DNA of 64,000 bases from an uncultured Pseudomonadota bacterium (GTDB lineage Bacteria; Pseudomonadota; Alphaproteobacteria; Rs-D84): the NCBI GenBank assembly GCA_949296475.1, contig CASFOK010000011.1:2300-66299 (forward strand), in the 5' to 3' direction. Shown here in pieces: positions 1-35,510 of this stretch. How positions within the stretch are numbered: the stretch's first letter is position 1; the number at the start of each line of letters is the position of its first letter. The position numbers and the translations under genes were made by a program. Under the pieces are notes generated by a model that ran no database searches, was not told where the DNA came from, and saw nothing but the letters and a program-made list of their open reading frames with translations.

Positions 1-42
1 TGACAATAACATTGCAAATGTTGTCACGGTTAGTTTTTTCAT
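1..42 (-). CDS. 5' end of a signal-peptide-like protein gene that runs off the left edge (MKKLTVTTFAMLLS...)
   Basis: Read by hand. ATG at 42-40 on the minus strand is preceded by a GGAAGGGAG SD-like run (48-56). The start is hydrophobic. It lies 39 nt downstream of the 82-1773 gene on the same strand. Confidence 0.3.
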   Translation of the reverse strand, partial: MKKLTVTTFAMLLS

Positions 43-81
43 GGTTGCTCCCTTCCTTTCTTTCTTAGTTTTTCAAAGTCT

Positions 82-1773
82 TTAATTTGCAGGATTTGTC
101 ACGTTAACCCACGAGATATTCCCGTCACGATCAACAGACAACACACACAAATTAGATTCCGCCTGACATTCTACGCCAGGTTTAGGTATAACATAATCAA
201 CGACAGCCTTGACACTGGTATACTCGTCAACGCTACCTTTATTTAAATCCGTAATGGTTTCCGCTTTATTATCTTTATCTTCTTTTGCCGCCAATGCCGG
301 TCCAAAGTCCCCTTCCATACCGGCTGTAATGGCCTCAGAAATTTTTGTATCTGTTTCTATTTTCGTATAAGCGTTTGTAATGCCATAGTCCGCCAAAGTC
401 GTACCTTTGTTCGCTTTTTTATCTAATTCGGTACGAACAGCCAATTCTGACGGATAGTCCGTATTCGTCGCAGTATCTATATCGCGAACAACAATTCGTT
501 TATTAGCAACGTCTTCTTTTTTAGCCAATTCTTCATTAACATAAGCTGTTGTAGCATAATTACTTAATGCGCTGCTATCAGCCTTGGTCGCCAATGCATC
601 AGCAACGGCCTTTTCTGACGGATAATTTTCTGTGGTTGCTTCTGATACGGAACGAACGGCCTGAACAATTTTATTTACATCTTGCTTGGTTAACAACCCC
701 GTATTCAGCGCGTCTGTAGTGGCATAATCACCTGCATCTTGTTTACCGGCCAAACCTTGTTCCAGTTCTTCTGTCGTTGCGTAATCGCCAACCGGTTGTT
801 TACCCTGCAATGCCTGATAAATTACCTTGCCTTGAACTGCGTTTGTACCATCAGGTGTTAATTCAGAATCAACAACCGCACCTTCGGGTATAACAGGTTT
901 ATCACTTAAATCGTTATAAGAACCTGTTGTGGCAACCGTTGCCAAATTATCAATTTTAGACGCTGGGATATTATCAGGTAAATCAGATACTGTTAAACTA
1001 GAACTACCCGTTACTAAACCCTTGGAATCATATGTTATTTTGGTTCCTGTACCGCCCGTAATTGCAGCATTTGCGGTAACTTTTTGATTCAACTCTTCAA
1101 CAGTCGCATAATTGCCAACAGGCTGTTTTCCGGACAAACCTTGTTCCAATTCTTCTGTCGTTGCATAATCACCTGCATCTTGTTTACCCTGCAGGGCTTG
1201 ATAAATTACCTTGCCTTGAACTGCGTTTGTACCATCGGGCGTTAATTCTGAATCAACAACCGCACCTTCGGGTATAACAGGTTTATCACTTAAATCGTTA
1301 TAAGATCCCGTTGTGGCAACCGTTGCCAAGCCCGTAATTTTATCTGTTGATAGTTGCGGTATATCTTCTGCTGTCAAAGCCTCGCTGCCCGTTACTAATC
1401 CCTTGGAATCGTATGTTATCTTGGTTCCTGTACCGGGTTCTATATCAGGATTTGCGTTTAACTTGCCGTCCACAGCATCAAGGTTTGCCTTGGTTTCCAA
1501 AGCACCATATACCGCAGCAGCAGAAGGATATTGTTCAGACGTTGAAGAAGAATCTATGGTCTGGGTTTTATTCGTTACATCTTCTTTCTTTGCAAGTTCT
1601 GACGCATCTGCTTTTAAATCAACAACCACACTTAAATCATTAACAGTTTGCAATATTCCGTCATCTTTTCTGTCCACATAATCTTTGCTGGCAATTTGCG
1701 CAGCGTTTGCAGAACCGGTATATAATAACCCTGCAATAACTAATAAAGAAACTACATAACTGTTGTTTTTCAT
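82..1773 (-). CDS. Secreted fibrous repeat protein with phage-tail-fibre-type motifs (563 aa)
   Basis: Signal peptide MKNNSYVVSLLVIAGLLYTGSANA|A. Tail-fibre-type motifs present: KITYDSKGLVTG, TGSYNDLSDKP, repeated DYATTEELEQGL, and TLADYGITNAYTK. It contains a ~128-aa internal duplication. No enzymatic motifs seen. Confidence 0.75.
   Translation of the reverse strand: MKNNSYVVSLLVIAGLLYTGSANAAQIASKDYVDRKDDGILQTVNDLSVVVDLKADASELAKKEDVTNKTQTIDSSSTSEQYPSAAAVYGALETKANLDAVDGKLNANPDIEPGTGTKITYDSKGLVTGSEALTAEDIPQLSTDKITGLATVATTGSYNDLSDKPVIPEGAVVDSELTPDGTNAVQGKVIYQALQGKQDAGDYATTEELEQGLSGKQPVGNYATVEELNQKVTANAAITGGTGTKITYDSKGLVTGSSSLTVSDLPDNIPASKIDNLATVATTGSYNDLSDKPVIPEGAVVDSELTPDGTNAVQGKVIYQALQGKQPVGDYATTEELEQGLAGKQDAGDYATTDALNTGLLTKQDVNKIVQAVRSVSEATTENYPSEKAVADALATKADSSALSNYATTAYVNEELAKKEDVANKRIVVRDIDTATNTDYPSELAVRTELDKKANKGTTLADYGITNAYTKIETDTKISEAITAGMEGDFGPALAAKEDKDNKAETITDLNKGSVDEYTSVKAVVDYVIPKPGVECQAESNLCVLSVDRDGNISWVNVTNPAN
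718..1434 (-). repeat. Intragenic tandem duplication, two ~381-384 nt units (aa ~114-240 and ~241-352 of the 563-aa protein)
   Basis: The stretch ataaattaccttgccttgaactgcgtttgtaccatc... starts at 817 and again at 1201 (offset 384). Identity is near-perfect through ~950/1335. A second conserved block (cttggaatc.tatgttat) sits at 1021 and 1402. Confidence 0.9.
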
Positions 1774-1784
1774 ATACCTGCCCC

Positions 1785-4166
1785 CTAGAATACTATATCA
1801 TACCACGTTTTATCGCCGTTATCGTCTGTACCGAACAACTTATTTTTCCCAGCCCCTTCAATTGTTACAACGCCATCTAAATCAGATTTGTCCGCTTTTG
1901 ATTGCAGTGACGTATGTACAGCCAACGCAGATGGATATTCTTCAGACGTAGAATTTTCATCTATGACCTGGGTTTTATTTGATTTGTCTTCTTTACCAGC
2001 CAACGCTTCATCAACACCTTCTATACCGCCAAGCGTTAAATCTTGCAGTTTTTTATCAATTGTTGATTTATCATAAACGCTGTCCACATTTGCCTTGGTT
2101 GACAAAGTACCATACACCGCCGCCGCAGATGGATATTGCACATCCGTAGAAGAAGCGTCTATGGTCTGTGTTTTATTTGATTTATCTTCTTTGGCGTCTA
2201 ATGAAGTGTTAACAAAATCTGTTGTTGCATAAGCCGATAATTCTTCTTTCGTGGCCAAAACACTTAAAGAAGACTTGTCCGCTTTGTCTGACAACTTATT
2301 ATCAACCTCGGTCTTGGTATAAGCATCTTGGATACCGTACCCAGCCAATGTGGTTGCTTTATCTGCTTTTGCAGCCGCTTCTAATCTTGCGGTATCGGCG
2401 GTATCTTGTGCGGTTTCCGCCGCTGATTGTGCGGATTCAGCGGTTGATTGCGCTGTTTCCGCTGCCGACTGGGCGACTGTTGCGGCCTGACTTGCAAGAT
2501 CTGCTATATTTTTTGCTTCATCCGCTGTTGTCACGGCGCTTTCCGCTGTTGTACGAACTTCATCTACTGCTGATGCGGCTTCTTCTGCGATTGCTTTTGC
2601 ATCTTCTGCTGTTGTTTTGGCGCCTTCTGCCGTTTGACTTGCGGTATCAGCGGTTGTTTTTGCCGTTTCTGCTGTTGTACGAACTTCGTCTATCAATTCC
2701 GTTGCCCTATCCGCCGCCTCTTTCGCGGTATTAGCAGTTGATACAGCAGTAGCAGACGCGTTAACGGCGTTCGCCGCCGCCACACCGGCATCGGTCGCCA
2801 AGGTTTTTACATTTCCAACCTCAGTAGACAAAGAATCCAGCGCAGATTTATCAGCCTTTAATGCAACCTCTGATTTCTGGGCATAATTTTCTAGTTCTGA
2901 CTTATCTGCCTTGTCTTCTAATTCAACTTTTGTTGCATAATTTCCCAGTTCTGATTTATCGGCCTTGGTTGCCAAACCAGAATCAACATAATCTGTTTTT
3001 GCATATGCAGATAAATCTACTTCACCGCCAATCGCAGCCTCTGCTATTTTTTGATCAATCGTTTCTTGGTCATAAGTTTCGGTTTTTGTATAAACATCGT
3101 CGGCGTTGGCTTTTGGTGCCAAACCACGCGATACAAACTCCTCTGTTGCATACCCCGTCAGCGCACCGTTATCTAACTTACCGCTTAGTCCATCAGTTAA
3201 CTCTGTTTTCGTTGCATATGTATTCGCCACATCCTCTGTTTTGGCATAATCTAATAATTCATCTTTTGTTGCATAAACAGTGGCCAAGGAATCAACAGCA
3301 TCTGATATCGCCTGATTCATAACTTCATAAGTAGTATAATTAGATAAATCAACAGACGCTACATCACCTGGTTCACCCTTTTCACCTTGGGGCCCTTGTT
3401 CACCACGTTCACCTTGGGGTCCTTGAATTCCTTGTTCACCCTGTGGACCTTGAATACCTTGCAAACCCTGGTCACCCTTTTCACCTTGGGGTCCTTGAAT
3501 TCCTTGCGCACCTTGTGGACCAGTAATTGCAGATATAGGTAATAACTCTATCCAACTACTATCACCTTCCAGACGCCAAACCAACGCCTGTTGTGCGTCA
3601 TCAAAACCTAATTCTACATTTCTGCCGACAACCTCGCCGATATTTTTACGTAATTCGTCTAAATCAAGCCAAATATTATTATCTTCTACATTAATATATT
3701 TATCCGAAGGAATCAGGTTTTCTTGTTTAACTGTATCTAAACGTTCTATTTCTTTTCGTAATTCAGCAATAATTTCTGGATCAACCGTTACATCACCGCC
3801 AGAACTGCTGCCACCAGATGTTCCGGGATTTTGTGGCCTTAATGAACTGCCACCGCTAACTGACCCACTGCCACCTAAATATTGTCCGATGGACAACCTG
3901 GGCGTTGTAAGAACGCGACCGCTTGTCGTAGAAGAACTTGTATTATTAGTATTACTTTGTGTGGTGGTGGGCGATACCCTGACAGAAGCACCACGGACAG
4001 AAGAAGTACCAGAATCAGATGCAACAGCAGCGGCAGCGTTTGACGCACCGTCATACGTACCACTGCCCCCCAACACCCGAACAGAAGACGCCGCATACGC
4101 ACCAGATACCGCGGTGCACAATACGCAAACTATCGCAAGTGTTGATATTTTAAAGTCTTTTTTCAT
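1785..4166 (-). CDS. Secreted collagen-like / tail-fibre-like fibrous protein (793 aa)
   Basis: Signal peptide ...CTAVSGAYA|A, then an S/T/G-rich low-complexity region and 17 G-X-Y triplets. YATK.EL-type repeats follow, then an Ala/Thr-rich coiled-coil-like region with a 42-aa internal repeat (DEVRTTAE twice). Two NKTQ.ID..ST..YPSA.AV cassettes are shared with the 82-1773 protein. It also carries [13 protein letters not shown]. Confidence 0.8.
3366..3521 (-). repeat. Collagen-like triple-helix repeat, (G-X-Y)17
   Basis: Translation reads [52 protein letters not shown]. The plus strand shows the reiterated ccttg(g/a/t) pattern. Confidence 0.95.
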
Positions 4167-4230: not shown

Positions 4231-4971
4231 TTAAAATTCATACCTTAATCCGATAGAAATAGAGTTATCCAAAATCAAACCGATTTTATTTTCTATACTG
4301 GACTGGTAGAAAACATTCGGTTCGTCTTTATAATACCATTCAAAATCCCTTGCATGCGTTGTGCCCATCAAACCCGCCAGACGATAACGAATATCTAACG
4401 TCAGGTTATAATCCAACTCTTTTGCAAAGCCCACCATTATACTGCCCATTGGCGAGACACTGCTTTTACTTCTTGCACCGCTTTCCATAACAAAATTCTC
4501 GCTATCTAATGTCGTAGTGGGCAAAGCAGCACCAATACCGGCCCCCAGATAAAAACCATTCAAGAAATCCCTATAACCATTTACTATCGCATAAGGCGCT
4601 GACAACGTAAATTCAAAACCTAAATCTTTGTCTGTAAAACGACCTATGTACCCACCTTCTAATTCAACGCGCCACAAGTAATTAAATTTCCAACCTGCCG
4701 CCAGACTGCCACCAAAAACAGGTTCAAAAGAATAAATATCTTCACTAAACTGACCGACTACATAAGGATAATCAGAATCATATTTATTTTTCCAATTTAA
4801 AAAACTTAGTTCTGCACGACCTACAACGTACCACCCGTCTTTTGCCTTATCCTTATAATCATATGTAACCGTATAACCGCCATTGTCATTTGGTGTTATA
4901 TGACTGGGTACTGCAAAAGCCTGCGTCGTAATGAACCCCATAAAAGCAACAAAAAGCATTTTTGTTTTCAT
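4231..4971 (-). CDS. Outer-membrane beta-barrel protein (OmpA-like TM / OMP_b-brl type)
   Basis: Signal peptide MKTKMLFVAFMGFITTQAFA. Alternating aromatic/Gly beta-strand pattern. C-terminal ...IGLRYEF with terminal Phe. Confidence 0.65.
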   Translation of the reverse strand: MKTKMLFVAFMGFITTQAFAVPSHITPNDNGGYTVTYDYKDKAKDGWYVVGRAELSFLNWKNKYDSDYPYVVGQFSEDIYSFEPVFGGSLAAGWKFNYLWRVELEGGYIGRFTDKDLGFEFTLSAPYAIVNGYRDFLNGFYLGAGIGAALPTTTLDSENFVMESGARSKSSVSPMGSIMVGFAKELDYNLTLDIRYRLAGLMGTTHARDFEWYYKDEPNVFYQSSIENKIGLILDNSISIGLRYEF

Positions 4972-8455: not shown

Positions 8456-8482
8456 TAAAAAACTGCCTGCCGGCAGTTTTTT
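8456..8482. terminator. Bidirectional hairpin terminator between plsC and the nuclease gene
   Basis: aaaaaaCTGCCtgccGGCAGtttttt, with an A-run and a T-run on either side. Confidence 0.65.
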
Positions 8483-8891
8483 AATTACACCAACTGTCAC
8501 GTTTTCCACCGTTATATGAACGTCCCAGTTTTTCTTGCAACAAAATATTACCGACATCACGACCATCTTGCAAAATAACGTCGGCATCTATTCTGCCCAA
8601 ATATTTATCGTCTTTTATGTTTTGTAATTCCACCACAGAACCAATTGATAATAATTCTGCCAACCTATCTTTTGCAAGATTTGCCATTCTTATTTCTTTG
8701 TCGCAACTACCTTTTAACTCGGGCGTATCAACATTTTTCAATCGCACACGAACGGAAATTTTTGTATCATCTTGTAATAAAACAAAGGCTGCAAAAGTAT
8801 CGCCGTCAAAAATATAATCAACCACTGCAGGTACAGCACTTGCCGCATTTATAAATAAACAAGACAATAAACAAACATAAAAATATTTCAT
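8481..8891 (-). CDS. Secreted thermonuclease (staphylococcal nuclease, SNase-like)
   Basis: Signal peptide MKYFYVCLLSCLFINAASA. SNase pattern DGDTF...VRLKNVDTPE...A..RL...V.L....DKYLGRIDADV. Confidence 0.7.
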   Translation of the reverse strand: MKYFYVCLLSCLFINAASAVPAVVDYIFDGDTFAAFVLLQDDTKISVRVRLKNVDTPELKGSCDKEIRMANLAKDRLAELLSIGSVVELQNIKDDKYLGRIDADVILQDGRDVGNILLQEKLGRSYNGGKRDSWCN

Positions 8892-10473: not shown

Positions 10474-10701
10474 ATGCCAAATGTAATGCAACAGTTATTC
10501 ATTATGAACATAGAATCTTTATTAAAAGAATATGCTGCCTATCGCACATTTAACAAATCTGATTGCGTTATAAACATGCGCATACCACGTCCAGTACTGG
10601 AAAGCATCAAACAACTGGCAGAAAAACAACACGTACCCTATCAGTCTTTGATATCTTCTGTATTATTTTCACTTGCAAATATAGAAGAAAACAAATCTTA
10701 A
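10474..10701 (+). CDS. Small ribbon-helix-helix (CopG/BrnA-antitoxin-like) protein
   Basis: AGGAG at 10462-10466, 7 nt before ATG 10474. The segment INMRIPRPVLESIKQLAEKQHVPYQSLISSVL matches the RHH/BrnA pattern (beta strand, helix, then ..PYQSLI..). Confidence 0.5.
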   Translation: MPNVMQQLFIMNIESLLKEYAAYRTFNKSDCVINMRIPRPVLESIKQLAEKQHVPYQSLISSVLFSLANIEENKS

Positions 10702-10718
10702 AAAATAAGGATGCAGAT

Positions 10719-11666
10719 ATGCCACTTCCAAAAACAAGTAAAGTATTCAAATCACTAAGCAACAATATTCACCATTCCGAAAAGATAACTATTCAAAAAA
10801 ATATTTTTGACACGAACAGTACAATAAACGAACATTATGGGGACTATTGGAAATTTTCCGATTTGTATAATCTATTTGGTCCGGACATAATGGGAAACCC
10901 AAAACTTATAAACGAAACCGTCAAAAAAATAATAACAAACGACGTTTTTATAAGTCTACCAACACAAAACAAAGATAAAATATTACGTCCGAATACTTTT
11001 GATGAATTTTACAACAACCATATAAAATTAATTTATTCAGATTATTCTATTAAACAAAAAAATAAAAACGAAATTACTGATGCCAAACTTAGTCGCTTTA
11101 CATGTTGGAAAATATTAAAACAATATCCCAACCTGATTTTTTCACAACTGTACTTTATGCATCCAAATATATCAGAACAAGAATTACAAAAACTGGCGAC
11201 CAGTTTTTCAAGGGTGTATTTACGACACTATGTATCAAAAGCCGAACGAATTTTATGTGGCATAGCATACAAAAATAATATAGATTTATGTAAATTCAAC
11301 CACGCAATCACACAATTATTCTTTTATAACAACGACACAGACACGTTAAAAAGCATACATAATATTAGGTTGCGTGACAAAGACCCGATTGCAAATTACA
11401 TGGGATGCTATTCTTTGTCTGCATTTAATACAGGGCTTAGCAAATCTATTCAATACTTCAATGCAACTAATCAACAAATGCCAATTGATAAATTCCTAGA
11501 TCAACTATTACACGAATTGTATTATCAAAGAACCAACATGTATAAAAAGAGAGGAATTTATCCAGAACAAGACATAAAACCAATCTCGGAACAACAAATT
11601 CATGCGGAATTAAAAACCAAAGAAAAAGAATTTATAAACAAATACGCATTTGAAAAAATTAGATAA
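10719..11666 (+). CDS. Hypothetical protein, possibly DinD/Bro-N-like (315 aa)
   Basis: Start trimmed to ATG 10719 (MPLPKTSK...). By-eye resemblance to the DNA-damage-inducible protein D layout: LSRFTCWKILKQ resembles LSRYACYLVVQN, and ANYMGCYSLSAFN resembles DHMGSTELAANLF. Asn/Lys/Ile-rich. Confidence 0.35.
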   Translation: MPLPKTSKVFKSLSNNIHHSEKITIQKNIFDTNSTINEHYGDYWKFSDLYNLFGPDIMGNPKLINETVKKIITNDVFISLPTQNKDKILRPNTFDEFYNNHIKLIYSDYSIKQKNKNEITDAKLSRFTCWKILKQYPNLIFSQLYFMHPNISEQELQKLATSFSRVYLRHYVSKAERILCGIAYKNNIDLCKFNHAITQLFFYNNDTDTLKSIHNIRLRDKDPIANYMGCYSLSAFNTGLSKSIQYFNATNQQMPIDKFLDQLLHELYYQRTNMYKKRGIYPEQDIKPISEQQIHAELKTKEKEFINKYAFEKIR

Positions 11667-17050: not shown

Positions 17051-19108
17051 TTATAAAACATTTTTCTGTAATTCTGTAATAGGCAGATTTAACCACTCTG
17101 GGTCATCGCGCATAGCTGGTGCACCTTCTTCCATTGCTGTTTCGCAGGGATGATCATCTGCCAACCAATTTTCCAACAAGTCACCTGCCAACAAACCGAC
17201 ACCGGCCCCCGCCACCAAACCGATACCACCAGTCAACGGCGCCAATAACAACCCCAAACCAGTAGCAGAAGCGACCTTACCTGCAACGGCAGCACCGCTA
17301 ATTTTTATGTCGGGTTCGGCTAAGTTTCCAGTAATCTCCATAGAATTTACAACGTTACCAGTCAACGATAATTTTAACCCACGAACAGGTACAGTTGTCA
17401 ACGCCATTTTCATTGTTTCTTTCCCTAGATTCAAATTACCCGCCAAACGCAAATTAATCGCATTAGTTTCAATGGCAAACCCCTGTTTAGTTTCTATTTC
17501 GCCGTCGCGTATTTTTGCGTTTAGTGCAAGACAAGATATTTTCATTTGATTATACTTTTTTTCTGTTCTGAATAAATCTTGAACGTTATGACGAAGCGTA
17601 GTTAAAAAATCTGTTCCATACATATTGGCCACCAACGCAGAATGCGCGTATCCTGATCCCACAGAGTATATCTGTACAGGTCCCGTCAAATTTTGCATCC
17701 ACTGCGATAAATTATCACCTTTTGTTTCCAGATACAAATCAACATTTACAGGCAAATCTGAAATTAAATTATCTACATTTACTTGTTGTAATATCTCGCC
17801 GATATAAATATTTCTACCTACGACACCGACTTTCGCTTGCATAGCGCCATCTGCATCTATATTTATATTACCTGCGACATCAACATCGCCGCCACCGATA
17901 ACAGATTTTGCATCAACCCTTGCCTGACCGTTTTGCAAATTTAACAACAGTTCAAGATTCTTTATATTAAAGTCTTTATAAACAATAAAGTCATTTAACT
18001 TTGTGCGCAAATTCAAATTAAACTTTAAAAATTCTTTTCCATACAAAGGAATATCTTTAAAAACGTTTAATTCGCGATTTGGTCTTACCCATTGCCCTTC
18101 GTACATTTCCGGGAACAAATCCATCAAACTGACATAATCAGAATTTACAACCAGTTTAATGTCGGGAATTGTTTTAGACCAATCAACACTGCCGGAAAAA
18201 TCAAAATTAGTTCCCCTGATTGTTACGGAAGATTTCCTGAAACTTAGTTTATTTCTATCAAAACCACCTGCCACATTTAGTTTCATTTTTGGCATTTGAA
18301 CAAAATTCAAATCAAATATTTTTCCTACATATTCAATATCTGGGATATCGCCCTTTATTATAAAATCAATTGGTGCTTTGCTGGTACCTTCCAAAGCGAC
18401 GTTCGCAATCAACGCATCACCACCCGTTGAAAACGCAATTTTAACAGGATAAACTTTCCTATCTGCATTATACTTAGAAAAAGAAACTATGAACGGTAAA
18501 GGGTCTTTGTTTGGTTTTATCCATCCGCTGTATTCCCTGGTATCATCTTTTAATGAATATCTGACTTGTACACCACCCAGATGATAGTTATGCCCCAAGG
18601 CATCTATTTCTATATTTTTAACCTCTACCCCGCCTAAACCAAAGTCTTCAAAAGGATAGTCTGTTGGGTCGGTACTTTCTGTCGCCATTTCAGAATTTTT
18701 GTTATTTGTTTTTAAAGAAAATTCACCTTTATCATTTTGCTCCAGACAAACAGTTGCGTCATAAACTTTCACGTTTTGAATTGTTGGTCTATCTCGTAAT
18801 AAAGAAATCAAATTTAACGTAACGTCTATTTTTTCAGCACTAAAAGCATTTTTATGCTTTGCCCAATCTGCATTAGGCACGCGCACCTGATGTAATTCAA
18901 TTTGCGGTCTTAAAGACAGTTTCCAAGATACTTCACCATCTATTTCAACGGGCAAACCCGTAGAGTCGCGTAAGATTCCCAAAACATCGCCACGCAAAGA
19001 TTCCAAATCAATTTGTGATAATGCTATAACAAACGCTACAACCAGCCCCATAACGAACAATACAATGACGCGCGAAACCGTAAAAAAAATTTTTTTCTTT
19101 TGTATCAT
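17051..19108 (-). CDS. AsmA-family outer-membrane biogenesis protein
   Basis: N-terminal anchor helix, then a long beta-rich periplasmic region of AsmA-like length with a Gly-rich C-terminal hydrophobic segment. Call is by architecture only. Confidence 0.5.
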   Translation of the reverse strand: MIQKKKIFFTVSRVIVLFVMGLVVAFVIALSQIDLESLRGDVLGILRDSTGLPVEIDGEVSWKLSLRPQIELHQVRVPNADWAKHKNAFSAEKIDVTLNLISLLRDRPTIQNVKVYDATVCLEQNDKGEFSLKTNNKNSEMATESTDPTDYPFEDFGLGGVEVKNIEIDALGHNYHLGGVQVRYSLKDDTREYSGWIKPNKDPLPFIVSFSKYNADRKVYPVKIAFSTGGDALIANVALEGTSKAPIDFIIKGDIPDIEYVGKIFDLNFVQMPKMKLNVAGGFDRNKLSFRKSSVTIRGTNFDFSGSVDWSKTIPDIKLVVNSDYVSLMDLFPEMYEGQWVRPNRELNVFKDIPLYGKEFLKFNLNLRTKLNDFIVYKDFNIKNLELLLNLQNGQARVDAKSVIGGGDVDVAGNINIDADGAMQAKVGVVGRNIYIGEILQQVNVDNLISDLPVNVDLYLETKGDNLSQWMQNLTGPVQIYSVGSGYAHSALVANMYGTDFLTTLRHNVQDLFRTEKKYNQMKISCLALNAKIRDGEIETKQGFAIETNAINLRLAGNLNLGKETMKMALTTVPVRGLKLSLTGNVVNSMEITGNLAEPDIKISGAAVAGKVASATGLGLLLAPLTGGIGLVAGAGVGLLAGDLLENWLADDHPCETAMEEGAPAMRDDPEWLNLPITELQKNVL

Positions 19109-32288: not shown

Positions 32289-32678
32289 CTAATTAACCCA
32301 AATAAAAGCGCGTCCCTCTGGCGCATCTCCTGATGGCATAGTCATCGGAACAGAATCTAATGCCGGGTCAGACTTGTCCAATTTAGTATCCAACGCATTT
32401 TTAACGGTTTGTGCGTTATAGTATTGCTGCGCGTTTGATACAGCGTCCAAACTGGTTAATTTGTTTTCAACGTTCTCTAAATTGCTTATATCAGGTATAA
32501 CCGGTTTATTTTTAATATAATCGGGGGCCGACGAATCGCTTTGATTCCAATCTGCTTGTATATTTTTTACGGCATCTACTATGGAATTAACGTACCCCTG
32601 TGATGCAAGTTCCGCATTAGCAGGCAATGCGCACAACCCCATAATTAAAGTAAAAATATATATTTTTGTATATTTCAT
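32289..32678 (-). CDS. Small secreted protein with phage-tail-fibre-type motif (129 aa)
   Basis: Signal peptide ...LCALPANA|E. ADWNQSDSSAPDYIKNKPVIP matches the DWN..D...P.YIKNKP tail-fibre motif. C-terminal GRAFIWVN resembles the C-termini of the 82-1773 and 1785-4166 proteins. Begins 28 nt after the secretin stop. Confidence 0.65.
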   Translation of the reverse strand: MKYTKIYIFTLIMGLCALPANAELASQGYVNSIVDAVKNIQADWNQSDSSAPDYIKNKPVIPDISNLENVENKLTSLDAVSNAQQYYNAQTVKNALDTKLDKSDPALDSVPMTMPSGDAPEGRAFIWVN

Positions 32679-32706
32679 TCTCTCGCACTATCCCGTAAAG
32701 AAACCT

Positions 32707-34335
32707 TTAATTTAAAGGCGCCCCCCAATGCTGTTGTATGCTACGTTCTACATCCATCGGACTGATTAATACCTGTGGCGTTAAAATAACCACCAGCACA
32801 TCACGTGTTGCCGACGTTTCGCGCGAACCAGACAAAGCCATAAAGTCAGGATCGCCCAACCCATAACGCGTATCATTATTTGTCTGTTTTTCAAACCCTG
32901 ACACGACCAGCATTTGCCCAGATTCCATAATAACTTCTTGCATGAAACTACGTTCCTCAACTTCTGGCAACTGCAAAGTAACTTCGCCGATCGTTTGCGT
33001 TGACATTTTCAACAATTCACGAACAGACATTCTGAACAGCAAAAGTATTTTACCATTTTCCAAGACATTTGGCAACAACTGCATTGAAAAACCTGTTTCC
33101 AAATCGTCTTGATCAACGGTACTTGACTCTACTGTTGTGAAGTTTCTAGACTCAAACCTTTTGATGTAACCCGTTGTTTTTGTGTTGTTTACTGGCGCAA
33201 CGCGATTGTTACGAGTAGTAACGCCGACGTTGGTAACCAAGGATACCTTTCCTTGTTTTGCAAGTGCTTCTATCAAGGCATTACTTCCTGCAACGCCGGA
33301 TAAAGACCCATTTTGTATTTGATCTTGGGTATAAGCACCTACAACTTCTGTACCATTTTCTTGGTGCGTCGCCCCTGTTAACGCGGATACTGTATTAGAC
33401 AAAACCGCGATATTCATGGCATTTGCTTCTGTCGTAGCCAAGTTATTCTTTGGGTTTGCGACGATATTCAAACCAGATGCAGAATTTATCGCAGCTGCTA
33501 AATTCAAACCAAAAGCCGAATCGTTTGATATAGAAACTTGTAACACTTTGACATCAATTGTAACTAGTTGTGATAAACGTTTATTCTGGCGCGCGATATA
33601 TTCCCCTACTCTATTTAATATGGACGGAGGCGCGGTTACAGTAATAGTTCCCAAACTGCGAGAAACAGTAAATTTAGCGTTATCAACATCGCCAACAATT
33701 GCAGATATTGCACTTTCTACTTCGTCCCACTCTTTTAAAGTAGATTCCAAAGACACCTGATTACCGTCATCTGTTTCTACGGCTGTTTGATAAGACACAT
33801 CCGTTCCCAGCGCATATAAAGTAAACGTTTTTGTTTCTGTTTCATAAAAAACGATTGACGTTTTATTATAATACCATAACAAGTCCAAATCTGTCGCAAT
33901 CTGAGACAATAACCCAGATAGTTTTCCTGTATAAGCAACGTTTATAGTTTTCTTTAATTTTTCTGAATTAACTTGACTGTCTATTTTAACTGGTATGCCT
34001 GTAATTGAAGTTATATCGTTTGCCAAAACCTGCAAGCTTACGGGCTCATTTAATAAAATTGTAATACCTGTATCCGTTTCAAACTGTGAAGGTAAATTAT
34101 TTCTGTGTTCTAAAATCGTTGACGATGCCCCCAACCAAACGCCTTCGGACATAGACACAGTATCGCCGCTTTCAACTTTGGCGCGCGGATTTTTTGCCAT
34201 TTCAAAAGCATCATATGCATTTATAAAATCTTGATCAACAGACGCAGCAACTTTTGCGGATTCTTCTTTTGCGCAACCCGTAAACATCGTGCATAACACA
34301 CCGCATACTATCAAAAATTTCATTGGCTTGATCAT
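32707..34335 (-). CDS. PilN-type (type IVb pilus) lipoprotein secretin
   Basis: Lipobox MFTGC. C-terminal secretin-domain pattern ...SGQMLVVSGFEKQ....RYGLGDP...LSGS......RDVLVVILTPQVL. 542 aa. Confidence 0.7.
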   Translation of the reverse strand: MIKPMKFLIVCGVLCTMFTGCAKEESAKVAASVDQDFINAYDAFEMAKNPRAKVESGDTVSMSEGVWLGASSTILEHRNNLPSQFETDTGITILLNEPVSLQVLANDITSITGIPVKIDSQVNSEKLKKTINVAYTGKLSGLLSQIATDLDLLWYYNKTSIVFYETETKTFTLYALGTDVSYQTAVETDDGNQVSLESTLKEWDEVESAISAIVGDVDNAKFTVSRSLGTITVTAPPSILNRVGEYIARQNKRLSQLVTIDVKVLQVSISNDSAFGLNLAAAINSASGLNIVANPKNNLATTEANAMNIAVLSNTVSALTGATHQENGTEVVGAYTQDQIQNGSLSGVAGSNALIEALAKQGKVSLVTNVGVTTRNNRVAPVNNTKTTGYIKRFESRNFTTVESSTVDQDDLETGFSMQLLPNVLENGKILLLFRMSVRELLKMSTQTIGEVTLQLPEVEERSFMQEVIMESGQMLVVSGFEKQTNNDTRYGLGDPDFMALSGSRETSATRDVLVVILTPQVLISPMDVERSIQQHWGAPLN

Positions 34336-34373
34336 TTATCATCTCCTCTGGCAAAAAACAAGAAACACAACAC

Positions 34374-35315
34374 CTACTCTTCCGAAGTAGAAATCACAAG
34401 TACCCTGTTACCCTTGTAAAACTTTGCATATGGTATTGGGGTTGCCCTTGCAAAATTTCTGACTAACGCGGACGCAACATCAACAAAACGTCCTTTAAAG
34501 ACCGCACTGGCTTCTATTGGATATTCACGAGACGTTGCCCATACTAAATCCCAACCTTCTTTATTACACCAATCTTGTAAAACCTCTCTCAACGTTTGAC
34601 CGCTGGCGACCACCCAAGAACGAACCTGATCCGACACGTTAACTGGCGCTTCTGCATCGGCAGAAATATCAACAGAAATTTCTGTCTCTGTCGTTTCAGA
34701 AGTTGAACTTTCATTAACGTCGGCTATTTCCGTTTCTGTCATCCCCATTTTTACAGCAAACGCCTGATAATCATCGGTATAATTACCACAGTTTTTTCTA
34801 CCGCTACGAGACACAGTCAAAACAGCCCCGCCATCGTCTTCTAGCATTTCACGATGCAACAACGGCATTTCAGAGCCATTATTACACTCGTCATCAAAAC
34901 CGACAGGAATTTGCGTTCCATGTAACATATTTGCACCGCCAGACCAACCGTTAAAATCGCCATCTGTCGCGCCTAAATTAAAATTATTTTCAACCACTAA
35001 ATCCGCGCCTATTTTTGAAACAACGCGAATATTATCAGACTGTTTTGACTGCGAACACATACCATCTTCGCACGCGATTTCCACATCTGCATCAGACCCA
35101 GCAATTGGCCAAACAGGTACCGTTGCGGGATTTGACTCTTGTACAACCACCTGCCCAGTTGTCTGTTCTTGCACCGCATAATTATTCGTTTCAGAGTCAT
35201 TTTGTTGGGTATAAAACACCTCTGACGTAACGACCTGGGGTGGAACCATATCCGCAGCAAAGCAATAACCCGCAGCGGTTGCAAACATTGCGACAATTAA
35301 AATTTTACGGAACAT
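34374..35315 (-). CDS. PilL/TcpQ-like pilus-biogenesis protein (TcpQ C-terminal domain)
   Basis: Start trimmed to ATG 35315 (MFRKILIVAMFATAAGYCFA signal) behind GGAAAGGAAG. The C-terminal W.V..GQTLREVLQDWC.KEGW.LVW....YPIEASAVF.G.F..... matches the TcpQ/PilL domain pattern. Confidence 0.6.
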   Translation of the reverse strand: MFRKILIVAMFATAAGYCFAADMVPPQVVTSEVFYTQQNDSETNNYAVQEQTTGQVVVQESNPATVPVWPIAGSDADVEIACEDGMCSQSKQSDNIRVVSKIGADLVVENNFNLGATDGDFNGWSGGANMLHGTQIPVGFDDECNNGSEMPLLHREMLEDDGGAVLTVSRSGRKNCGNYTDDYQAFAVKMGMTETEIADVNESSTSETTETEISVDISADAEAPVNVSDQVRSWVVASGQTLREVLQDWCNKEGWDLVWATSREYPIEASAVFKGRFVDVASALVRNFARATPIPYAKFYKGNRVLVISTSEE

Positions 35316-35510
35316 AAAAACTTCCTTTCCTGAATTAATTACTCTATTAATTAAACTTATTATATCAATTTGACCGAATCTGTGCAAGATTAAAACGCAC
35401 CGCAATTTAGCAAAACTTTAAAAAGTTACAATTATTCCAAGATAAAATCGCACGAATCGCAAAAACGTGTTATACTAGGCATATTAAACAAACATCTTCA
35501 GGATTAAATT

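Follow-up and report, generated by a model that had tools for sequence, protein, structure and literature searches.

At one end of the 64,000-nucleotide stretch analyzed here (contig CASFOK010000011.1 of an uncultured alphaproteobacterium, positions 2,300 to 66,299; hereafter the window), a cluster of minus-strand genes encodes long, repeat-built proteins carrying phage tail-fiber motifs, which we call fiber proteins. The open reading frame (ORF) reading of the window located three such genes in the same direction, spaced by 11 and 39 nt, in agreement with the coordinates given by a first-pass annotation of the same DNA. A gene for a putative outer-membrane protein lies upstream of them, and the cluster exceeds three genes on the other side as well, with at least one further fiber gene containing at least 133 collagen triplets. 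The genes, in the order in which they are read, are as follows.

4231..4971, minus strand: putative small outer-membrane β-barrel protein, 246 aa, upstream of the fiber genes with a 64-nt gap
1785..4166, minus strand: fiber protein B, first fiber gene, type B, 793 aa
82..1773, minus strand: fiber protein A, second fiber gene, type A, 563 aa
1..42, minus strand, running leftwards off the window: start of the third fiber gene, type C, beginning MKKLTVTTFAMLLS; 375 aa in the same species

The three fiber proteins were judged to carry signal peptides from their sequence features and from the conservation of these features in every orthologue. Each N-terminus combines a basic n-region with a hydrophobic core of 12-15 residues, followed by A-x-A ahead of the predicted cut: in A, MKNNSYVVSLLVIAGLLYTGSANA is followed by a cut between TGSANA and AQIAS; in B, the cut falls between SGAYA and ASSVR (signal peptide aa 1-25); and in the product of the third gene, completed from a 97%-identical contig, MKKLTVTTFAMLLSVISVGVANA precedes a cut between VGVANA and AITSQ. 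The earlier proposal of a signal peptide on all three proteins is thereby borne out at the level of prediction. The phage tail-fiber motifs that had been recognized by eye were also recovered, with KITYDSKGLVTG and TGSYNDLSDKP each occurring twice in A and TLA[GD]YGI.[DN]AYTK occurring once in A and once in B, and they were accompanied by matches to PHROGs tail-fiber families and to jumbo-phage tail fibers (detailed below). The features within A and B are listed here from the start of B to the end of A.

4092..4166, minus strand: B signal peptide (aa 1-25), MK..LKIS.LSIVCVLC, with unusually strong conservation in the family
3792..4091, minus strand: B Ser/Gly-rich region (aa 26-125), predicted disordered (AlphaFold2 (AF2) pLDDT <55), with invariant linear motifs
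3525..3698, minus strand: B small α/β domain with two conserved Trp (aa 157-214), AF2 pLDDT 85-95, directly before the collagen run
3360..3521, minus strand: B collagen-like (G-X-Y)18 (aa 216-269), Pfam Collagen E 3.8e-10, with a 27-nt DNA period
2367..2759, minus strand: B Ala/Thr-rich heptad segment of the trimeric coiled-coil type (aa 470-600), Alanine_zipper, with a 21-nt DNA period
1893..2177 (2091-2177 and 1893-1979), minus strand: B two NKTQ...YPSA.AV cassettes (aa 664-758), DNA repeat D3 in common with gene A
1788..1874, minus strand: B C-terminal module (aa 765-793), terminal hairpin motif
1672..1773, minus strand: A signal peptide (aa 1-24), then the conserved mature N-terminus IASKDYVD (aa 27-34) at the start of a predicted helix (aa 29-62)
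670..1437, minus strand: A tandem duplication of a ~128-aa phage-fiber module (aa 113-368), TGTKITYDSKGLVTG ... LATVATTGSYNDLSDKPVIPE ... YATTEEL
85..210, minus strand: A C-terminal module (aa 522-563), IPKP..C......CVLSV..DG...WVNVT.PA, containing two conserved Cys and predicted to form a β-hairpin

No enzyme domain was detected by the Pfam scan of A and B, and repeats were evident at the DNA level, so that the products can be described, as they had been at first sight, as long, enzyme-free and repeat-built. The two copies of the tandem module in A lie 384 nt apart with 85% DNA identity (repeats D2 and D6 reach 75-85%), and the NKTQ cassette, of which A has one copy (aa 68-96) and B has two (aa 664-692, 730-758), exhibits 68-82% DNA identity between the two genes; because of this duplication in A and this sharing of cassettes at the DNA level, the repeats of A and B are not attributable to chance. 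The copy numbers of the cassette had been given correctly, but its true spacing is NKTQ.ID..ST...YPSA.AV...L..KA, which departs from the first description by one residue at two places. Similarly, the collagen-like run of B is present as claimed but comprises 18 triplets instead of 17, while the Ala/Thr-rich coiled-coil-like segment was corroborated by its 21-nt period and by a match of Pfam Alanine_zipper (PF11839) to aa 489-537 (E 3.6e-9, 37.2 bits against a cut-off of 23.1). By sequence, B retrieved only collagens from the PDB, with the match to BclA confined to the collagen run, whereas A retrieved nothing. In A, β-hairpins were predicted by AF2 at KITYD..GLV, and a Foldseek search of the A monomer model against BFVD produced no significant match. 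Pfam scans of types C and D, of chimeras and of the members located beside a secretin (see below) returned only spurious, composition-driven matches (EBNA2_N, PBP1_XylR, Pet20); likewise, precomputed Pfam labels on fiber homologs (PF22177 PBP1_XylR, PF08692 Pet20, PF25697 EBNA2_N and others) were rejected as sub-threshold composition noise and not as domains.

Comparison of the fiber proteins across lineages allowed four types to be distinguished by their ends.

Type A: IASxxYVD after the signal peptide; C-terminus IPKPxxCx6CVLSVxxDGxxxWVNVTxPA
Type B: ASSVRxLGGxGTY... after the signal peptide; C-terminus ...VLGTDxxGxxxWYEIxF
Type C: IASxxYVD after the signal peptide; C-terminus IPKPxxCx6CVLxxxxxxxWExIAR
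Type D: IA[AS]KxYVD after the signal peptide; C-terminus GNVxIPxGSxxxTxYAxIW[IV]E

The pattern Φ-Φ-Φ-x(4-9)-W-x(2-3)-Φ closes types A, B and C and is present in at least 86 of 150 type-B representatives; its Trp is invariant, a Gly/Asn/Asp turn usually precedes this Trp, and AP.DG is often found before the motif. The AF2 model of A folds this ending into a hairpin with strands at 543-547 and 553-557 (pLDDT about 70-75). Types A and C each have two conserved Cys in their C-terminal module, which would fit an oxidizing compartment. A common C-terminal motif had been proposed for A, B and a 129-aa protein encoded elsewhere in the window, and was taken as a shared anchoring or recognition tag. The endings are as quoted and those of A and B fall into the Trp-hairpin class, but the ending GRAFIWVN of the third protein groups with the type-D class and the proteins beside the secretin (...IW[IV]E, ...IWFN). 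Because the hairpin is conserved across lineages and located at the C-terminus, a folding or trimerization element would explain it at least as well as an anchoring tag, and its likeliest job may be to nucleate or register a trimer. C-terminal elements play this part in the fibers of phages and adenovirus. A resemblance by eye to the T4 fibritin foldon was pursued and set aside as statistically unsupported: neither of the profiles A1 and A3 retrieved a foldon-tagged PDB chain at E ≤ 10, hhalign of the C-terminal profiles against the foldon gave probabilities of 0.2% and 3.5%, and the direct score of 7.2 bits came from a fragmentary alignment and was reached by 2 of 5000 shuffles.

At the opposite end, the N-terminal region of type B is distinctive. 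The AF2 model (61 sequences) left aa 26-125 disordered, followed by a helix at 130-149 and the ~58-aa α/β domain at 157-214, and downstream of the cut the protein harbors the invariant motifs SVRxLGGxGTY, R.GS.RV and PRLSIGKYLGG. An exhaustive HMMER search with B aa 1-215 yielded 275 clusters (50% identity) at E ≤ 1e-3, 179 of them at E ≤ 1e-10; among the best 150 of the 275, in proteins of 151-1095 aa, every match begins at or near residue 1. One such match, read in its context, proved to be this locus's first gene in yet another lineage, and the only organism name attached to any type-B N-terminus member looked up was "Alphaproteobacteria bacterium". Two invariant motifs of the type-B N-domain were used to screen 2.9 million IMG/VR viral contigs, in which no relative was confirmed. 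Since this region is always N-terminal in the listed matches and was found in none of the viral contigs, it is a private, cell-side feature of the family. The Foldseek search of the aa 1-215 model gave nothing significant against the PDB, and against BFVD its best match was a tail fiber protein with an E of 0.012, below significance. It was also observed that the type-B signal peptide bears Cys14 in at least 90% of the sequences (P0245-P0394), with no lipobox, in proteins otherwise 35-60% identical. Together, these features make the disordered region of B a candidate docking or targeting peptide, for which the co-encoded outer-membrane protein is the obvious candidate partner. This 246-aa protein has a signal peptide and ends in GLRYEF, in which LRYEF resembles a β-signal; its orthologues give a weak match to Pfam OMP_b-brl and occupy the same position in all syntenic loci, while sequence and profile searches of the PDB found no relative, and it is described here as a putative small outer-membrane barrel.

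Syntenic lineages assembled through the region (L006/L008, L011, L012, L013, L096 and L098/L099, counted here as seven) share one locus order, in which FtsEX and Pal are followed by the small outer-membrane protein and three to four complete fiber genes (more in the window species) and then, with DedA (VTT domain) on the opposite strand, by RbfA and LepA. In none of the seven did the locus contain capsid, portal, terminase, tail, baseplate, chaperone or lysis genes, and over 10 kb on the right-hand side of the cluster the window showed no phage structural genes. The first-pass annotation had named phage structural or lysis genes immediately left of the window as the finding that would point to a prophage; in the seven lineages the cluster ends on that side at DedA-RbfA-LepA, and its conclusion that the locus is not a prophage gains from these housekeeping flanks on both sides as well as from the signal peptides on the members. 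In the window species, every readable contig (A proteins 94-97% identical) ends inside the fourth gene, and the long collagen repeat is a likely reason for these assembly breaks. As an observation in its own right, this fourth gene (12980-14812 of contig L001) is again of type B and encodes an uninterrupted, highly repetitive run of at least 133 G-X-Y triplets.

The order B-A-C-D, with type-specific termini, was read in five lineages, and the distal part of the cluster also in L011. Between these fixed ends the rod modules vary freely in number and kind. Collagen is lacking in A, C and D and in some type-B orthologues, with the type-B triplets numbering none in a 410-aa orthologue (L008), eight in L013, 18 in the window and at least 133 in the paralogue. 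In comparisons with four other lineages, identity drops steeply on approaching the cluster: TolB is 84-89% identical, FtsE 79-89% and Pal 60-71%, while the outer-membrane protein is 47-56% identical between lineages and the fibers reach 17-42% of the longer length, with large length changes. A chimera of 640 aa (P0012), which joins a type-B signal peptide and N-terminus to a type-A, Cys-containing C-terminus, is, as read from its sequence, direct evidence of recombination between paralogues, and together with the DNA cassette of A and B (82% identical) it points to an exchange of modules between them. Conserved ends combined with fluid rods are what one would expect of envelope proteins that are exposed and recombine while their two ends have to go on fitting conserved partners. 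An integrase-like gene of 332-334 aa, with weak Arm-DNA-bind_3 and Phage_int_M matches, was also noticed about 4 kb beyond the cluster in relatives (L006 18202-19200; L008 18122-19120; L011 8728-9729; L012 19949-20947; L098 10278-11282); it occupies the same place among housekeeping genes, after lepA and before acpP/fabF, and could be a domesticated recombinase.

The relatives of A fall into two classes. About 36 of the 122 best relatives combine a signal peptide, an IASxxYVD start and one of the typed C-termini, and every signal-peptide homolog whose contig was read lies at this chromosomal locus. The remaining relatives have unrelated N-termini with no signal peptide (for example MAENMIDLNGLVHVWSK...) and resemble A in its central modules only, over about 30% of that protein; one of them (P0043) adjoins Gp53-like, DUF4376, integrase and holin genes, that is, a prophage tail/lysis module. 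The stated contrast with phage fibers held, as phage-like homologs have no Sec signal and the signal-peptide forms are purely chromosomal; homologs are not confined to phages. The link to phage fibers lies in the modules: PHROGs assigned A to phrog_7389 (8.5e-9) and B to phrog_819 (3.4e-15), both tail-fiber families, with the B matches mostly centered on the collagen run, and the 119-aa repeat module of A aligned by tblastn with tail fibers of PA5oct-group Pseudomonas jumbo phages at 39-40% identity (E about 1e-6). The whole protein A had no match in 50,697 GenBank phage records, and as a single query in IMG/VR it retrieved nothing, with patterns that were poor.

The 129-aa protein mentioned above belongs to a second site of the window, which we describe here for its bearing on export.

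34374..35405, minus strand: TcpQ-domain protein (Pfam TcpQ), upstream of the secretin
32707..34335, minus strand: PilN-family lipoprotein secretin (Pfam Secretin), directly upstream of the mini-member
32289..32678, minus strand: mini-member, 129 aa, with signal peptide, ELASQGYVN, ADWNQ..YIKNKP, one degenerate cassette and ...EGRAFIWVN

The mini-member matched the fibers with a phmmer E of 4.9e-5 against the window ORFs and a BLASTP E of 4e-6 to A, and by this similarity it is a genuine small relative, with the other C-terminal class. In a word-indexed search of 5.8 billion proteins, it had only two near-identical homologs. The secretin scored 240 bits against TIGR02520 (PilN, type-IVb), below the cut-off of 288, and no ATPase, platform, pilin, pilus or type II secretion system (T2SS) inner-membrane genes are adjacent to it. 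The TcpQ gene and the PilN-type secretin gene form a stand-alone operon followed by a hypervariable slot before rpsT (window 32289-35405; L016-L095), and in 80 related metagenome loci the secretin and rpsT were separated by as little as about 100 nt and as much as 3.4 kb. Among the 54 related loci in which both secretin and rpsT were found, the slot has no room for a gene in 22 and measures at least 700 nt in 21, of which 15 contain no detectable family member. Fiber-family members of 105-582 aa with the C-terminus PSGTPPxGxx[IV]WF[ND] occupy the slot of eight related loci. Other occupants met among about 60 related loci, unrelated and with signal-peptide-like N-termini, are a Cys-rich family of 315-714 aa and a family of 321-334 aa. 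The suggested co-occurrence with the secretin pair is accordingly recurrent (the window and eight related loci) but not obligatory, given the 22 of 54 loci with no slot gene; the pair is a lead for the export route and is possibly related to export.

Taking these observations together, we consider it reasonably probable that the locus encodes homotrimeric, rod-like cell-surface fibers of an adhesin or coat type, assembled from phage-fiber modules that have become fixed host genes. Under this reading, Sec would export each protein and its signal peptide would be cut at A-x-A; trimerization in the periplasm would be nucleated by the C-terminal Trp β-hairpin module, to which types A and C would add a disulfide, and the collagen, Ala-zipper and phage-fiber β-modules would zip up from this C-terminal nucleus. 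Passage through the outer membrane would follow, one candidate being secretin-dependent export of the Lcl/T2SS kind. Type B would then be held on the cell by its disordered N-terminal peptide (SVRxLGGxGTY, PRLSIGKYLGG), possibly docked on the small outer-membrane barrel, types A, C and D would be held by the IASxxYVD N-cap, and the rod would point outward from the cell. We infer the surface location and the export route. Since the rods are free in length and modules and diverge fast, they are presumably exposed to host, phage or immune pressure. The rise of collagen is about 0.29 nm per residue, at which at least 133 triplets correspond to roughly 115 nm, exceeding any periplasm width; rod length and variability therefore favor an extracellular location.

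Several points weigh against this interpretation. The C-termini are conserved and not diversified, unlike the receptor-binding tips of phage fibers and of the mosaic adhesive trimers (MATs) of Bdellovibrio. We infer the trimeric state from module types only, and monomer models are poor (pLDDT 53 for A). The main cluster has no linked outer-membrane export machinery, and the co-encoded barrel is too small for a channel. An amphipathic N-terminal anchor like that of Lcl was not supported by the sequences of A, C and D, whose N-terminal helices had a hydrophobic moment no higher than that of shuffles in five of six sequences by a crude test. No Pfam model covers the private parts, every named family member is a "hypothetical protein", and no readable assembly of the window species extends past the fourth gene. 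A more specific version of the surface-fiber reading, which we put forward tentatively and think rather doubtful as a whole, is that of a clade-wide, vertically inherited system of up to four non-redundant trimeric fiber types (B, A, C, D), Sec-exported and mounted by a new mechanism in which invariant leader peptides and the conserved signal peptide dock on the dedicated small outer-membrane barrel, with no known anchor or outer-membrane secretion pathway.

Among the alternatives, the fibers might serve the PilN/TcpQ-type secretin (32.7-35.4 kb) as substrates or appendages, folding in the periplasm and then being pushed through it or mounted on it as Lcl is handled by the T2SS. We judge this unlikely, although the secretin gene is directly followed by that of the mini-member, family members of 105-582 aa recur in the same slot of eight related loci, the other occupants read also start like signal peptides, and Legionella Lcl provides a precedent; 28 kb separate the main cluster from the secretin, 22 of 54 slots are geneless, no family member was detected in 15 of the 21 longest, the mini-member has just two near-identical homologs, the secretin is not accompanied by ATPase, platform or pilin genes, and the slot members have a C-terminal class of their own (PSGTPP.G..IWFN). 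That the proteins stay in the periplasm as Lpp-like envelope tethers or spacers working with Tol-Pal seems improbable to us. The locus does abut pal, ftsEX and tolB, B contains an Lpp-type Alanine_zipper segment and, to our knowledge, Alphaproteobacteria lack Lpp; but rods with at least 133 collagen triplets in a paralogue are far longer than the periplasm, their length and sequence vary to an extreme degree beside conserved envelope genes, their modules are those of phage receptor fibers, and neither a lipobox nor a C-terminal Lys is present.

A comparably low chance is given to released exoproteins, either soluble lectin-like or decoy fibers or bacteriocin-like binders that are not cell-bound. 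Signal peptides with no recognizable membrane anchor, trimeric autotransporter barrel or sortase-type signal would suit such proteins, as would the lack of an N-terminal domain in A, C and D and the occurrence of Lcl in supernatants too (PMC11162425), yet the conserved termini, the fixed gene order and the dedicated outer-membrane protein suggest assembly on a partner, and no toxin or enzyme domain was found. Least probable of all, and largely refuted, is a remnant of a prophage, tailocin or gene transfer agent whose tail-fiber genes are still used on particles. The repeat modules are indeed common to phage tail fibers and relatives have an integrase-like gene about 4 kb past the cluster, but that gene is itself conserved among housekeeping genes; all members carry signal peptides, where phage-like homologs have none and begin with unrelated N-termini; no capsid, tail, baseplate, chaperone or lysis gene occurs in the seven syntenic lineages; and neither the GenBank phage records for the whole protein nor IMG/VR for type B yielded a relative.

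Divergent from the outer-membrane gene are those for Pal (OmpA domain), FtsE, FtsX, a DUF218 protein, an acyltransferase, an SNase-like protein and TolB, and the others encode housekeeping functions (DnaA, DprA, PlsY, ParE, UvrC, SufB/S, GatA/B, MiaB, RecJ, FtsI, oleate hydratase and two tRNAs). Around the operon start in the window, no convincing invertible-promoter or phase-variation repeats were detected; one σ70-like site lies in the gap between the outer-membrane protein gene and B, with the promoter/terminator scan overall at chance level. The gene against tolB (8481-8891) encodes an SNase-like secreted nuclease. Beyond tolB, relatives have a CopG-antitoxin-like gene and an unannotated 315-aa gene (L001 37-1456), and at the position of the latter the window contains a 367-aa ORF (10563-11666) with a weak DinD-like match. 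Additionally, a 685-aa protein (17051-19108) shows weak N-terminal similarity to envelope proteins of the AsmA/TamB/YhdP type, and could bear on outer-membrane protein or lipid transport.

The clade to which the window belongs consists of uncultured gut Alphaproteobacteria common in human and animal metagenomes, and GatB alone has hundreds of relatives of 85-93% identity in gut metagenomes, where most of the few matches with an organism name are labeled Alphaproteobacteria bacterium. Placing the clade in the gut order RF32 would be a guess, and a literature search on that order returned nothing about its biology. The fiber locus is the fastest-evolving envelope feature seen in this analysis of the clade, and its family has neither a Pfam family nor, for the members looked up, a name from any source. 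The locus shows a route by which phage fiber modules become fixed host genes with export signals. If the proteins are surface adhesins, they would be candidates for attachment to host or mucus, for phage receptors or shields and for strain-level antigenic variation. The conserved signal peptide, the linear motifs in the disordered leader, the fixed four-type gene order and the dedicated small outer-membrane protein could hide a new anchoring or export mechanism; the invariant N-terminal peptides would offer a handle on the outer-membrane anchoring or export step, which is equally at issue for the Bdellovibrio MAT fibers.

Comparison with known systems places these proteins near several families and inside none of them. 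With the Lpp-type lipoprotein, B shares an alanine-zipper coiled coil, but it is cut after AYA and before A, has no L-[AS]-[GA]-C lipobox and ends in ...DIVF, with no C-terminal Lys. The T4 fibritin foldon resembles the rod ends by eye (AP.DG..YV....G..W..L and a predicted β-hairpin) but differs in that the strands here are longer, and the likeness has no statistical support. Trimeric autotransporter adhesins of the YadA family also combine a Sec signal, modular stalks with coiled coils, repeat-number variation and a surface adhesin role, which for the window fibers is presumed; that identity was ruled out, as there is no C-terminal YadA-type anchor (no Pfam match at E ≤ 0.1) and the C-terminal module is a hairpin of roughly 20 residues, too short for a 4-strand barrel segment. 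Phage tail fibers, phi29-type head fibers and PF11133-bearing prophage fibers have in common with the window fibers KITYD..GLVTG, LATVATTGSYNDL..KP.IP, DWNQ..YIKNKP, YPSE.AV cassettes and collagen runs, but the window fibers bear signal peptides instead of virion-attachment N-termini, possess private N- and C-terminal modules, have no phage neighbors and are inherited vertically at one chromosomal site; the signal peptides and non-phage neighbors also excluded their identity as virion fibers.

The uninterrupted G-X-Y run (18 triplets in B, at least 133 in the L001 paralogue) is a trait of the bacterial collagen-like proteins Lcl, Scl and BclA, whose family end domains (DUF1566, C1q-like, V domain) were not detected by Pfam in the window fibers. 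Legionella pneumophila Lcl is exported by Sec and the T2SS, re-binds the cell through a short N-terminal helix and combines variable collagen repeats with a trimeric end (PMC11162425). A Sec signal, a short helical N-terminal part and collagen-like repeats of variable number are found in the window fibers too, and Lcl itself is a trimeric Gram-negative surface adhesin with secretin-based export, a trimeric and surface state that the window fibers would share. Unlike Lcl, they have no DUF1566 C-terminal domain, their collagen is limited to type B and dispensable (none in the 410-aa L008 orthologue), and their N-terminal helix is not measurably amphipathic. The MAT fibers of Bdellovibrio bacteriovorus have a signal peptide, a conserved N-terminal part and phage-like trimeric rods displayed at the surface (PMC10769870). 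They resemble the window fibers as Gram-negative chromosomal genes with multiple paralogues, in the signal peptide followed by a conserved cell-proximal N-terminal part, and in long phage-tail-fiber-like rods with mosaic module exchange. Judged by MAT descriptions and not MAT sequences, the window fibers are set apart by lacking the ~130-aa β-rich N-domain (the signal peptide is followed immediately by a helix in A, C and D, and by 100 disordered residues with linear motifs in B) and the S74 protease/chaperone (no Peptidase_S74 in Pfam), by C-termini that are conserved within a type across lineages where MATs have diversified tips, and by genes clustered in fixed order with an outer-membrane protein in a gut alphaproteobacterium. 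Membership in the MAT or the Lcl family was rejected on the MAT N-domain, the S74 domain, the diversified tips and DUF1566. As functional analogues, the Bdellovibrio MAT fibers and Legionella Lcl would be the nearest, and the known kind to compare with here is that of bacterial surface fibers built from phage-fiber modules.

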